From a virus (lineage: Duplodnaviria > Heunggongvirae > Uroviricota > Caudoviricetes), in the IMG/VR virus record IMGVR_UViG_2667527584_000004: a DNA stretch of 4,535 bases. One strand, given 5' to 3'. Position 1 is the stretch's first letter; every line of letters begins with the position of its first letter. A model generated the notes under the pieces. The model worked only from the letters and a program-made list of their open reading frames with translations. It was not told where the DNA came from and searched no databases. Position numbers and translations under genes: made by a program. Below, one piece after another: positions 1,509 through 4,535 of this stretch.

Positions 1509-2183
1509 TTAGGCTTTGATTTTGTATCTTCTTGGTTTTCCTGAGAAAATCACAGTACCAATTATAGAGCAATTACCGTTGATCTTAATGTAAGGCTCAG
1601 GCCAGTTTGGGTTTAACGCTTTGAGATAACGCTGTGTCCCATCTTCTATCAACCTTTTGAAGGTGGTTTCACCTGTATCGTGCATCAATGCAATAACGTC
1701 GTCACCGTGGCAGGCAGGTACTTCAGGATCGACAAAAATCATGTCTCCCGGGCGGTACTCATCAATCATTGAATCACCTATCACCCGCAAGATATAAGTC
1801 ATTTCCCCACAGGGTACAGGGCAGGGATACGTTTCTGCTGTGCTCAAATCAACCTCAGAATATCCAACTTCTTTCCATGCTCCGGCCTGTACCCATGATA
1901 TGACAGGGACTAATGTGATTTGTTTATTAGTGATTGAAACATCAGGTTTTTTTGTGATGTTCGTTGTCTGGTGTTCTTGATCGAGCCATCCGACAGGCAG
2001 GTCGAAACATTTTTCGATGTGTCGTGCCATGCTGTCACCGATATTTTTAGTAGCACCATCTCCCATAAACCTGCTGGTCTGGGTTGGCTCGCGATCAATC
2101 ATAGTGGCAAAGGAAGAATTCCCGCCAACACCATCTCTCAGTTTTCTGGCGTTAGACCGCCGGATGTCATGGATTGTTTTCAT
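1509..2183 (-). CDS. cI: CI-type prophage repressor (N-terminal HTH, C-terminal S24 LexA-like autopeptidase domain)
   Basis: 224 aa. C-terminal half carries the S24 signatures: VQAGAW (Ala-Gly cleavage site), ILRVIGDSM (catalytic Ser), TFKRL (catalytic Lys), and a VDPEV...LKALNPNWP...INGNCSIIG pattern resembling P22 C2 / lambda CI. Divergent from the cro-like gene across an operator region. Confidence 0.92.
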   Translation of the reverse strand: MKTIHDIRRSNARKLRDGVGGNSSFATMIDREPTQTSRFMGDGATKNIGDSMARHIEKCFDLPVGWLDQEHQTTNITKKPDVSITNKQITLVPVISWVQAGAWKEVGYSEVDLSTAETYPCPVPCGEMTYILRVIGDSMIDEYRPGDMIFVDPEVPACHGDDVIALMHDTGETTFKRLIEDGTQRYLKALNPNWPEPYIKINGNCSIIGTVIFSGKPRRYKIKA

Positions 2184-2273: not shown

Positions 2274-2474
2274 ATGAAAGCGTATTGGGACTCTTTAACC
2301 AAAGAACAGCAGGGCGAGTTGGCCGGAAAAGTTGGCTCAACACCTGGCTACTTACGGCTGGTTTTCAATGGCTATAAAAAAGCCAGTTTTGTGCTGGCTA
2401 AAAAACTTGAGCAATGCACGTCAGGTGCAATTACGAAATCTGACTTAAGACCGGATATCTATCCGAAAGATTAG
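2274..2474 (+). CDS. Cro-like HTH regulator (YdaS/Cro family)
   Basis: 66 aa, MKAYWDSLTKEQQGELAGKVGSTPGYLRLVFNGYKKASFVLAKKLEQCTSGAITKSDLRPDIYPKD. GGAGG 11 nt upstream. The in-frame upstream ATG at 2250 lies inside the operator/-10 and is rejected. Pattern matches short YdaS-type Cro analogues. Confidence 0.85.
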   Translation: MKAYWDSLTKEQQGELAGKVGSTPGYLRLVFNGYKKASFVLAKKLEQCTSGAITKSDLRPDIYPKD

Positions 2475-2505: not shown

Positions 2506-3069
2506 ATGAGGCTAATCGTGGGTAAGCATCACTGGAAAATAGAAAAACAGCCTGAGTGGTACGTGAAAGCTGTCAGAAAAACGATCGCGGCGTTGCCGGG
2601 TGGTTACGCTGAAGCGGCTGACTGGCTCGATGTAACAGAAAACGCTTTATTCAACCGCCTTCGTGCAGATGGCGATCAGATTTTCCCGCTGGGATGGGCA
2701 ATGGTTTTACAGCGTGCTGGTGGCACTCACTTCATTGCTGATGCTGTGGCGCAGTCTGCAAATGGCGTCTTTGTGTCTCTTCCTGACGTCGAGGATGTGG
2801 ACAACGCCGATATCAACCAACGCCTGCTGGAGGTCATTGAACAGATCGGCAGTTATTCAAAACAGATTCGTTCAGCAATTGAAGACGGTGTAGTGGAACC
2901 GCATGAGAAGACAGCAATTAACGATGAGCTGTACCTCTCAATTTCGAAGCTGCAGGAGCATGCAGCACTGGTCTACAAAATCTTTTGCGTTTCAGAAAGT
3001 AGTGACGCCCGCGAGTGTGCAGCTCCGGGCGCCGTGGCGTGTCGTGACTGTGGAGAAACTAACGCATGA
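2506..3069 (+). CDS. YdaT/CII-like early regulator
   Basis: 187-aa ORF 31 nt after the cro-like gene. Family call is from remembered similarity to YdaT-type proteins that follow YdaS in Rac-like prophages. ATG 2506 has no clear Shine-Dalgarno; an in-frame GTG at 2518 preceded by GAGG (2508-2511) is an alternative start. C-terminus has a CRDC motif. Confidence 0.8.
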
Positions 3070-3404
3070 ACAGTTTAACAACACACTACCGTCGCTCGCA
3101 ACTGATTGCGCTTCCTGTACCGGGTGGAAAAGCGAAGGTGGAGTATTGCTATGCAGTAAATGTACCAGGTGACAGGGAAATTGTAACCCACAGCTTTGCT
3201 GAGTGGGCTGTGGGTGATTTCAACCGGCAGAAGGAGACAGTCCTTTGCGACAAGTTAACCGCTGGTTCAAAGATCACTACGGAGTGCCCGTCAGAGTCAT
3301 TCGTTGGGAACCGGAAACACAACGGGTTATCTACCTCCGCGAAGGCTATGAGCATGAATGCTTCAGTCCGCTCGAACAGTTTCGTCGTAAATTCAGGGAA
3401 ATAG
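3066..3404 (+). CDS. Hypothetical ORF (doubtful); overlaps the stop of the preceding gene (ATGA) and the whole small gene at 3245..3424
   Basis: 112-aa ORF from the track. The N-terminal half looks protein-like; the C-terminal half is Ser/Asn-rich and looks like an off-frame read of the 3245..3424 gene. Confidence 0.3.
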
Positions 3405-3424
3405 AGGTCGGTCATGAGCACTAA
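3245..3424 (+). CDS. Small phage protein, DUF4222-like (tentative), TTG start
   Basis: AGGAG (3232-3236) 8 nt upstream of TTG 3245. Translation [59 protein letters not shown] fits a remembered DUF4222 pattern. Overlaps the O-like start by 11 nt. Below the ORF-track length cut-off. Confidence 0.5.
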
Positions 3425-4325
3425 ATTAACCGGCTATGTATGGGATGGTTGCGCTGCGTCAGGCATGAAGTTATCCAGCGTGGCAATTATGGCCCGCCTG
3501 GCTGATTTCAGTAATGACGAAGGTGTGTGCTGGCCATCAATTGAAACCATTGCCCGCCAGATTGGCGCGGGGATGAGTACCGTCAGAACGGCTATCGCAC
3601 GGCTGGAAGCAGAAGGCTGGTTAACGCGTAAGGCGCGTCGCCAGGGTAACCGCAATGCGTCGAATGTTTATCAGCTTAACGTTGCGAAGCTTCAGGCAGC
3701 GGCATTTTCTCAACTGTCAGATTCTGACCCGTCAAAATTTGATGCGTCGAAATCTGGCAAAAAAGCGGGTTTTCACCCGTCAGAATCTGGCGGGGATCCG
3801 TCAGTAAAATCAAAACATGATCCGTCAGATAAAAAAACTTCTCGTCCGGACGCTTCGCAACCGGACACGCAGACGGCTGAACAGGAGTTTTTAACTCGCC
3901 ATCCTGATGCTGTTGTATTCAGCCCTAAAAAGCGCCAGTGGGGAACGCAGGATGATTTGACCTGCGCACAGTGGCTCTGGAAAAAAATCATCGCCCTGTA
4001 CGAGCAGGCTGCCGAATGTGACGGCGAGGTGGTTCGTCCCAAAGAACCGAACTGGACAGCCTGGGCAAACGAAATTCGCCTGATGTGTGTGCAGGATGGT
4101 CGTACTCACAAACAAATCTGCGAGATGTACAGCCGCGTCAGCCGCGATCCGTTCTGGTGCCGTAACGTGCTCAGCCCGTCGAAGCTGCGGGAAAAATGGG
4201 ATGAGCTTTCCCTGCGCTTATCGCCGTCCGTAAGTACGTACACCGAAAAACGCGAGGACCCGTACTTCAAAGCCAGTTACGACAACGTGGACTACAGCCA
4301 GATCCCGGCAGGATTCAGGGGGTGA
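3414..4325 (+). CDS. Replication initiator, lambda O-like (N-terminal HTH, iteron-encoded linker, C-terminal domain)
   Basis: 303 aa. GAGG (3403-3406) 7 nt upstream. N-terminal winged-helix-like segment SIETIARQIGAGMSTVRTAIARLEAEGWL. The central low-complexity DPS-rich linker is encoded by DNA direct repeats, the hallmark of ori-lambda-type origins inside O genes. Confidence 0.9.
   Translation: MSTKLTGYVWDGCAASGMKLSSVAIMARLADFSNDEGVCWPSIETIARQIGAGMSTVRTAIARLEAEGWLTRKARRQGNRNASNVYQLNVAKLQAAAFSQLSDSDPSKFDASKSGKKAGFHPSESGGDPSVKSKHDPSDKKTSRPDASQPDTQTAEQEFLTRHPDAVVFSPKKRQWGTQDDLTCAQWLWKKIIALYEQAAECDGEVVRPKEPNWTAWANEIRLMCVQDGRTHKQICEMYSRVSRDPFWCRNVLSPSKLREKWDELSLRLSPSVSTYTEKREDPYFKASYDNVDYSQIPAGFRG
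3714..3836. repeat. Iteron array, probable phage replication origin within the O-like gene
   Basis: Six copies of a CCGTCAGA-type core starting at 3714 (CTGTCAGA), 3729 (CCGTCAAA), 3744 (GCGTCGAA), 3777 (CCGTCAGA), 3798 (CCGTCAGT) and 3822 (CCGTCAGA), followed by an A-rich tract (3829-3837). Confidence 0.7.
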
Positions 4326-4327
4326 TC

Positions 4328-4535
4328 ATGAGTCTGTTAAATGACGTTCAGAAATTCATTGAAGCCCATCCGGGGTGTACTTCCGGTGACATTGCGGATG
4401 CTTTTGCAGGTTACTCACGACAGCGCGTTCTGCAGTCAGCAAGCAAGTTACGTCAGAGTGGGCGTGTGGCTCACCGTTGTGAAGGAGATACACGCAGACA
4501 TTTCCCGCGCCTGACTGAGAGAGCGCAGGAACCGC
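4328..4535 (+). CDS. Hypothetical protein, 5' part only; sits where lambdoid phages encode the helicase loader (P/DnaC-like), function unverified
   Basis: ATG 4328 is 2 nt after the O-like stop, with AGGGGG upstream. Frame stays open to the window end, so it is absent from the ORF track. Begins MSLLNDVQKFIEAHPGCTSGDIADAFAGYSRQRVLQSASKLRQSGRV. Confidence 0.7.
   Translation, partial: MSLLNDVQKFIEAHPGCTSGDIADAFAGYSRQRVLQSASKLRQSGRVAHRCEGDTRRHFPRLTERAQEP

Follow-up and report, generated by a model that had tools for sequence, protein, structure and literature searches.

Small genes that start on their own inside a different reading frame of another gene are known from phages. In lambda Rz/Rz1 and in phiX174, where E lies within D, both products of the pair are sequence-constrained functional proteins. 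Coupling of termination to re-initiation, at stop and start codons that overlap or adjoin as ATGA or TAATG, is common in phage operons. Here we describe a locus that shares features with both arrangements and differs from both, the ymfM region (positions 3050-3424) of the virus record IMGVR_UViG_2667527584_000004. The whole stretch analysed, 4,535 bases and called the window below, is the immunity and early-right region of an e14-like lambdoid prophage, as judged from its gene families and synteny.

The explanation that best accounts for the region as a whole, and which we consider probable, is that two genes of the prophage's rightward early operon overlap here and that both are real. The first, ymfM, would consist of a folded domain of about 60 codons followed by a run-on of 52 codons, which passes through the second gene in the +1 frame of the latter. 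The second, a DUF4222 gene, would be started independently from AAGGAG and a TTG codon and would encode a protein with an SH3/Tudor-like barrel fold. As in Rz/Rz1 and E/D, a small gene with its own start lies inside a different frame of another gene. However, the overlapped outer frame here carries no residue constraint and is conserved in its openness and its end point, and the DUF4222 gene extends 20 nt beyond the outer open reading frame (ORF). The anatomy of coupled cistrons is present as well: ymfL is joined to ymfM by ATGA, ymfM stops on the Shine-Dalgarno sequence of the next gene, and the DUF4222 stop lies just past the ATG of that gene. Unlike at ordinary coupled cistrons, the predicted coupling would have to cross 52 codons that belong to another gene in another frame.

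The outer ORF has a described counterpart. The ymfM gene of e14 in K-12 (b1148) was reported to be the SOS-inducible division inhibitor SfiC (Ansari et al., bioRxiv 10.1101/2020.11.19.390815). The ORF in the window has the same 112 amino acids in length and the same position, and it matches phrog_1170 over residues 1-112 of 112 (E=9.7e-70). Whereas ymfM appears in the literature as a simple ORF, its second half is here an unconstrained overlap with a better conserved gene.

The N-terminal domain of ymfM

An earlier note, made from the sequence alone, listed three overlapping readings in this region, and all three are present in the DNA. The first is ymfM, which runs in frame 0 from ATG at 3066-3068 to TAG at 3402-3404. 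As the note said, it starts on the stop codon of the preceding gene, since its ATG overlaps the TGA of ymfL (3067-3069) as ATGA. This ORF is the classical ymfM of K-12, with three residue differences from K-12 YmfM, all within the tail. It sits between ymfL and an O-like gene, as in E. coli ATCC 11775 and MG1655. The upstream gene, taken for YdaT-like in the note, is instead a YmfL/CII-like regulator (family matches in Table 1).

We compared the window with 28 loci, which gives 29 sequences. The loci come from some twelve genera of enterobacteria, among them Escherichia, Shigella, Citrobacter, Enterobacter, Kluyvera, Kosakonia, Raoultella, Atlantibacter and Phytobacter. Over the N-terminal domain, the ratio of nonsynonymous to synonymous differences per site (pN/pS) was 0.66 in frame 0, compared with 0.95 and 1.08 in the other two frames. 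Frame 0 of the domain contained 18 synonymous and 7 nonsynonymous single-nucleotide polymorphisms (SNPs) in a set of 51 E. coli haplotypes. The domain occurs as three homologous sequence types and has a PHROG of its own, phrog_20047. AlphaFold2 (AF2) predicted a modest beta-beta-beta-alpha fold, with block means of the predicted local distance difference test score (pLDDT) of 61-77 over residues 11-50. In distant phages, homologues of the domain are free-standing proteins of 58-72 amino acids whose stop codon lies 6-9 nt past the DUF4222 ATG. The start is also conserved: the ymfL/ymfM junction reads CGC[A/G]TGAAC in 18 of the 29 sequences, and bases 3065-3079 are 94% conserved at the nucleotide level. 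By these measures, the first 60 or so codons of ymfM are real coding sequence under purifying selection.

Annotation by the Prokaryotic Genome Annotation Pipeline (PGAP) implies a different view, in which DUF4222 is the only gene and frame 0 is a non-coding open frame. Such a view would fit the RefSeq records of ATCC 11775 and MG1655, which have the DUF4222 coding sequence and no ymfM, as well as the failure of Pfam and NCBIfam searches to find a YmfM model and the lack of amino-acid constraint in the tail. It is contradicted by the frame-0-specific purifying selection on the 179 nt between ymfL and DUF4222, and it does not account for the conserved ATGA start junction, the matches to PHROGs 1170 and 20047, the stand-alone homologues in other phages or the active exclusion of stops downstream. 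We regard it as highly improbable.

The nested DUF4222 gene

The second reading, with its AGGAG and TTG start, had been described as resembling a real small protein of the DUF4222 kind, and this was borne out by a match to PF13973 (E value in Table 1) and by purifying selection. The protein is a full-length member of Pfam DUF4222 and phrog_1343. The Pfam match scored 67.3 bits against a cut-off of 27, with residues 2-53 on profile positions 3-52 of 53. The TTG at 3245 comes 8 nt after AGGAG (3232-3236). The gene is nested in the 3' half of ymfM in the -1 frame, and its 3' end overlaps the ATG of the O-like gene (3414) by 11 nt. It is identical to the PGAP coding sequence WP_001250269.1 of ATCC 11775 and MG1655. 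The note had also named two small genes as one possible arrangement. There are two, but they are not separate: ymfM is full-length and DUF4222 lies within it.

The DUF4222 start is found at one alignment column in all loci. The start codon is mostly ATG, in some loci GTG, and TTG in the E. coli type, and a purine-rich element resembling a Shine-Dalgarno sequence (GGAG, GAGG or AAGG) lies upstream of it in most loci. In two loci (L016 and L032) a frame-2 stop stands immediately before the DUF4222 ATG, which rules out an N-terminal extension of the protein. Representatives of the family are mostly 57-80 amino acids long. In the overlap region, pN/pS in the DUF4222 frame was 0.18, with a pS of 0.68 compared with 0.62 in the O-like gene. 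Fourteen of the 15 E. coli SNPs in the overlap are silent in DUF4222 and one is silent in frame 0, in a set that was gathered with a DUF4222 query and is hence biased. AF2 modelled the protein as an SH3/Tudor-like beta-barrel (pLDDT 84.1). No solved relative was found by sequence, and comparison with viral structures gave no functional label. Judged by its conservation and its start site, DUF4222 is a strongly constrained, independently started gene.

The open but unconstrained tail of ymfM

Downstream of its N-terminal domain, ymfM behaves differently. The pN/pS of the tail in the overlap is 1.73, the synonymous sites of DUF4222 are unsuppressed, and AF2 predicted the tail to be unstructured (pLDDT <50). 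Within the overlap, amino-acid purifying selection was found on the DUF4222 product only and not on both products as in an embedded pair.

The tail frame contains no stop codon in any of 31 diverged loci. For each locus, the chance of an open frame was calculated exactly, given the DUF4222 protein sequence and the local codon usage, and was 0.02-0.14. For ordinary genes from these loci, 8.6% of 52-codon segments were predicted to be open in the +1 frame and 6.6% were; in the low-GC distant set the values were 1.6% observed and 1.8% predicted. The calibration on ordinary genes of the same loci rules out an artefact of codon usage as the cause of the open tail.

The signal of stop exclusion lies at four "danger" dipeptides of DUF4222: Val/Leu-Asn, Val-Ile (twice) and Leu-Glu. 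At these columns none of 124 codons ends in a purine, whereas purines end 258 of 543 codons at the gene's remaining four-fold sites. The codons alternate between GTT and GTC and between CTT and CTC, all of them ending in a pyrimidine. In a tree-based neutral model, which is meant to handle shared ancestry and assumes a stop-free ancestor, the probability of this exclusion was 6e-9, 2e-5 and 1e-3 at kappa 1, 4 and 8, respectively.

The alignments show a tail that is constrained solely to stay open and to end at the start of the next gene. Both frames are kept by selection across diverged relatives, DUF4222 by residue constraint and frame 0 by stop exclusion. The earlier note had expected that clear conservation of one frame would discard the others. 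Two frames are kept, each in its own way, and of the three readings only the last, a cysteine-containing segment discussed below, is discarded. The locus would be a clean natural example of an alternative frame conserved for its openness and not for its encoded product. Such frames are poorly handled by gene finders and by dN/dS-based screens for overlapping genes.

The end point of the tail and the next gene

Exactly 9 nt separate the frame-0 stop from the following ATG at 19 of 21 distinct e14-like junctions. This spacing holds for five different downstream N-termini (MSTKL/MSSKL, MSLLM, MSQIF/MSRIF/MRQIF, MNTLI and MVFKP), and the 9-nt spacer is purine-rich (TAGaggtcggtcATG, TAAaggacgaccATG). 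In the window, the TAG of ymfM shares its last base with the GAGG of the O-like gene. In every lineage except one (the L224 group) the frame-0 or +1 stop falls within -11 to +18 nt of the next ATG. By contrast, the DUF4222 stop may fall as far as 92 nt beyond that ATG or up to 12 nt short of it. The gene downstream of the ymfM stop is usually a replication gene. The ymfM/O-like junction thus has the hallmark of coupled cistrons, a conserved upstream stop a few nucleotides from a downstream start.

Ribosomes that start at ymfM would travel along the open tail to the start of the replication gene, terminate on its Shine-Dalgarno sequence and re-initiate there, which would be translational coupling. 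We think it plausible, although we would stop just short of giving it an even chance, that the tail is kept open for this delivery of ribosomes to the replication gene. If so, selection would act on translation itself and therefore not on the peptide.

Hairpins at the DUF4222 Shine-Dalgarno sequence and at the O-like start were no better than those of shuffled sequences, and a scan of 3000-3450 with Rfam found no significant family.

The layout in related phages

In the window and the 28 loci, frame 0 is open from the ATGA junction to the fixed stop. Further sets of loci were gathered in other ways. Eight phage loci were matched by DNA, with no frame bias; six of them are of the e14 type and have the same two-frame layout, and the remaining two are SfV and a Stx2a phage. 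Another set was retrieved through the YmfM protein rather than DUF4222, and two of its loci, L113 and L116, contain a DUF4222 gene whose product is 40% identical to that of the window. In these two and in L124 (40-43% identity), DUF4222 is nested in the -1 frame of the ORF for the N-terminal domain.

In SfV and the Stx2a phage, the +1 ORF over DUF4222 reads directly into a protein of the Ash/Rha family, whose Ash domain begins at residue 117 in one phage and at residue 73 in the other. These ORFs, SfV orf37 (L117 766-1602) and 830-1663 of the Stx2a phage (L121), are annotated as a "transcriptional regulator" of about 278 amino acids with an Ash domain, plus Rha in L121. Both regulators have as their N-terminal 70-115 residues the +1 reading of a DUF4222 gene that is complete but missing from the annotation. 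In SfV, a degenerate YmfM N-terminal domain precedes the +1 stretch of orf37.

About 120 loci were gathered around distant DUF4222 relatives. In distant low-GC phages the gene for the N-terminal domain is separate. Its stop codon is overlapped, in the form AATGA, TAATG or TGATG, by a +1-frame ATG located at +8, which opens an ORF of 55-62 codons that spans DUF4222. Eleven of 12 lineage representatives are stop-free in +1. In L204-L223, L123 and L242, the +1 ORF over DUF4222 starts with a hydrophobic, transmembrane-like segment (MKIQIILIGCIWISAVFVFVSYVM...), which may be a mere effect of T-rich third positions in DUF4222 or a real small membrane protein.

A natural "DUF4222-minus" variant was also seen. 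In Entomohabitans teleogrylli (L114 1501-1737) and in L115, a 39-codon deletion, in-frame for both genes, has removed the core of DUF4222. The remaining YmfM-like ORF of 78 amino acids still reaches the start of the O-like gene, with an 11-nt overlap.

We raise, with more doubt than belief, the wider possibility that the +1 frame across DUF4222 genes serves as a family-wide "ribosome conduit", selected for translation-through and for its end position and not for its product. Such a conduit would be fused to the YmfM domain in the e14 type and to an Ash/Rha regulator in SfV and the Stx2a phage, and it would be re-initiated at ATGA in distant phages. Each time, ribosomes would be handed to the downstream gene, usually a replication gene.

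The main rival explanation is that the +1 ORF encodes a functional but sequence-tolerant peptide, and that the frame is open for this product rather than for ribosome traffic. The peptide could be a disordered or biased tail used in division inhibition by YmfM, or a separate small hydrophobic protein in the distant phages. Retention of the ATG at +8 in three stop/start configurations, ahead of an ORF with a hydrophobic N-terminus, would be expected of such a product, as would the family-wide exclusion of stops; it was also the full 112-codon ORF that gave filamentation (see below). The lack of residue constraint on the tail and its low pLDDT do not fit with a peptide, nor do the unsuppressed synonymous sites of DUF4222. 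The character of the peptide would moreover vary, from hydrophobic in low-GC phages to polar and rich in Ser, Thr and Ala in the e14 type. Stand-alone N-domain proteins exist without a tail, and in the Entomohabitans variant the frame is still open as far as the O-like start despite the loss of 39 codons from the tail. We consider a functional peptide unlikely.

Several points weigh against two overlapping genes with a tail kept open for coupling. DUF4222 served as the query for collecting both the 28 genome loci and the 80 viral loci, so its apparent conservation is inflated. The RNA around the O-like start has no structure that upstream translation could melt (-3.4 kcal/mol, z=0.2). DUF4222 is itself translated and also ends at the downstream start, and the need for a second stream of ribosomes is not obvious. 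The L224 group has a +1 stop at a distance of 79 nt ahead of the next gene, made unavoidable by a Met-Ile dipeptide of DUF4222; the constraint on the open frame is therefore not absolute. The tree behind the neutral test is rough and the four-fold sites behind it are few. Ribosome-profiling or proteomic data for either product were not found, and the prophage is repressed in normal growth.

Frameshifting, sequence errors and the remaining frames

The earlier note left room for one frameshifted gene or for a sequencing indel near 3200-3245. Both are excluded by how widely the layout is shared. Bases 2900-3500 of the window are 100% identical to E. coli ATCC 11775 and NCTC11151, two independent complete genomes. 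The same segment matches 2,710 records, which come from 2,701 of 5,426 complete E. coli genomes (about half), K-12 MG1655 among them. Of the E. coli records, 1,935 cover 80% or more of the query and have the two-frame layout, which is shared by the 28 loci and by the DNA-matched phages.

A single gene, expressed by programmed -1 ribosomal frameshifting or split by a frameshift, would give a fusion of the N-terminal domain to DUF4222 of about 119 amino acids. This could explain why both frames are jointly open for 27-117 nt ahead of the DUF4222 start in most loci, and rare database proteins are indeed such fusions (P0184, 119 amino acids with 14 member sequences, and P0179). However, these proteins come from nearly identical E. 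coli sequences that carry one indel each, and most of them stem from assemblies of raw reads. When we read through the window (3218-3260), no X XXY YYZ heptamer was seen, nor a conserved one in homologues, although no dedicated scan was run. The frame-2 stop right before the DUF4222 ATG in L016 and L032, the conserved start codon, the Shine-Dalgarno-like element present in most loci and the separate adjacent genes of distant phages all argue against a fusion, and we consider it very unlikely.

The sporadic E. coli fusions of the YmfM N-terminal domain to DUF4222 through a single indel are four in all (P0184, P0179, P0151 and P0085), with 118-119 amino acids. Either genuine mutation or faulty assembly could account for them.

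An indel introduced near 3200-3245 by sequencing or assembly, or a pseudogene in decay, has next to no probability. All 79 of 79 copies on viral contigs have the two ORFs intact, as do loci across genera. A scan of viral contigs with the DUF4222 alignment gave 80 near-identical copies (97-98%), of use for SNPs only. The identical layout in the 1,935 records and the perfect match to two independent genomes point the same way.

The third reading of the earlier note was a CxxC-N11-CxxC segment in frame 2. The pattern is there, ending at TGA 3170-3172; its interpretation as a gene for a zinc ribbon is refuted by comparison. Of 29 sequences, only 3 preserve both the four cysteines and the open frame, and these are near-identical copies from E. 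coli. In Shigella flexneri a stop codon interrupts the motif, and other loci have stops or have lost cysteines. The segment has no good start codon and no Pfam match. On this comparison, the reading is a chance pattern. The motif could belong to a small protein of the zinc-ribbon type or to an extension at the C-terminus of YmfL, which itself ends with CRDC; with the region under frame-0 selection and stops in most loci, we give that idea practically no weight.

An antisense ORF of 90 codons was also rejected. Only a TTA, CTA or TCA codon can close this classic shadow frame, and three of the 31 loci do have stops in it; it is open in the other 28.

Annotation of the locus and the identity of SfiC

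The locus is present in K-12 and in about half of the complete E. coli genomes, yet it is annotated in three incompatible ways. Phage records vB_EcoM-720R4 and Eeyore call ymfM, ST147-VIM1phi7.2 calls DUF4222, and ST101-KPC2phi6.3 and vB_EcoS-716R3 call the antisense ORF as a coding sequence.

The conflict bears on the published function. The K-12 ymfM ORF, cloned in pBAD24, was reported to block Z-ring formation and to cause filamentation, and was named the SfiC inhibitor (bioRxiv 10.1101/2020.11.19.390815). The preprint is silent on DUF4222 and on the overlap; the word "frame" appears in it once, as "open reading frame" in a figure legend (bioRxiv 10.1101/2020.11.19.390815). Along with its Shine-Dalgarno sequence and TTG codon, DUF4222 has 53 of its 59 codons on the 339-bp K-12 ymfM insert, enough to encode the Pfam domain in full. 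An earlier shotgun clone, D1-8E, contained ymfL(142-185), ymfM and ymfN(1-92) and therefore carried both genes. A screen in UTI89 mapped a 1.8-kb region only. Since the constructs carry both genes, the YmfM filamentation experiments cannot tell which product acts. The reported SfiC gene overlaps a better conserved gene that is present in every construct, and the identity of the active product is thereby in question. If the frame is indeed a conduit for ribosomes, the SfiC function, which was assigned to "YmfM" after 35 years, may belong to the 60-residue N-terminal domain or to the nested DUF4222 protein rather than to the annotated product of 112 amino acids.

Coordinates and neighbouring features

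The features are collected in Table 1.

Table 1. Features of the ymfM region and its neighbours, in window coordinates
Feature	Position	Strand	Basis
cI/LexA-like repressor (ymfK)	1509-2183	-	
Small helix-turn-helix (HTH) gene (ymfT)	2274-2474	+	
ymfL, CII-like regulator, upstream gene	2506..3069	+	Pfam Phage_CP76 E=1.4e-13; NCBIfam YmfL NF041471 E=2.7e-50
ymfL/ymfM junction: GGAG 3052-3055, then ATGA 3066-3069	3052..3069	+	read from sequence
CxxC-N11-CxxC segment, not a gene; alternative frame of the ymfM N-terminal domain	3050..3172	+	intact in 3/29 sequences
ymfM N-terminal domain, ~60 codons, frame 0	3066..3245	+	pN/pS, SNPs, phrog_20047 E=5.5e-43
Antisense 90-aa shadow ORF, not a gene	3149..3421	-	no family match
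Shine-Dalgarno AAGGAG of the DUF4222 gene, within ymfM	3231..3236	+	read from sequence
DUF4222 gene, 59 aa, frame 2, TTG start, TAA 3422-3424	3245..3424	+	Pfam PF13973 E=8.6e-19; phrog_1343 E=2.1e-34
ymfM tail, 52 codons + TAG, frame 0, through the DUF4222 gene	3246..3404	+	stop-free in 31/31 loci
GAGG 3404-3407, then O-like ATG 3414	3404..3416	+	read from sequence
O-like replication initiator (HTH_36), downstream gene	3414..4325	+	Pfam HTH_36 E=4e-11

The gene upstream of ymfM is named ymfL in ATCC 11775 and MG1655, and PGAP places its start at GTG 2518. Near its 3' end, a 30-nt block at 3005-3034 (ACGCCCGCGAGTGTGCAGCTCCGGGCGCCG) shows 93-96% nucleotide conservation in 26 loci from many genera; the coding DNA that flanks it is about 65% conserved. 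The block holds a GC-rich inverted repeat with a predicted hairpin on the + strand (-25.2 kcal/mol, z=-2.3). By its position it recalls the lambda oop/P_O region at the end of cII. It may also be a mosaic recombination joint, because homology to a Klebsiella phage begins at 2993. No match to a promoter or terminator consensus was found at the block or across the disputed region.

The O-like gene is labelled "DNA replication protein O" or "primosomal protein" in phage records. Its ORF has 303 amino acids in the window and 313 in ATCC 11775 (L001 3515-4456). After it, an ATG at 4329 opens another ORF in the window, where ATCC 11775 has yfdN. With a different length of the O-like protein and a different next gene, the window is therefore another mosaic than the strain that matches bases 2900-3500 perfectly.

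Upstream of the repressor module, Rfam STnc100, a gammaproteobacterial small RNA, matches 461-683 on the - strand over its full length, with 45.4 bits, slightly below the gathering score of 47 (E=9e-8). The leftward genes and the repressor are separated by an ORF of 170 amino acids (794-1306, + strand) whose N-terminus resembles a signal peptide. It corresponds to the hypothetical protein WP_000500990.1 of ATCC 11775 and is a possible candidate for a moron or lysogenic-conversion gene.

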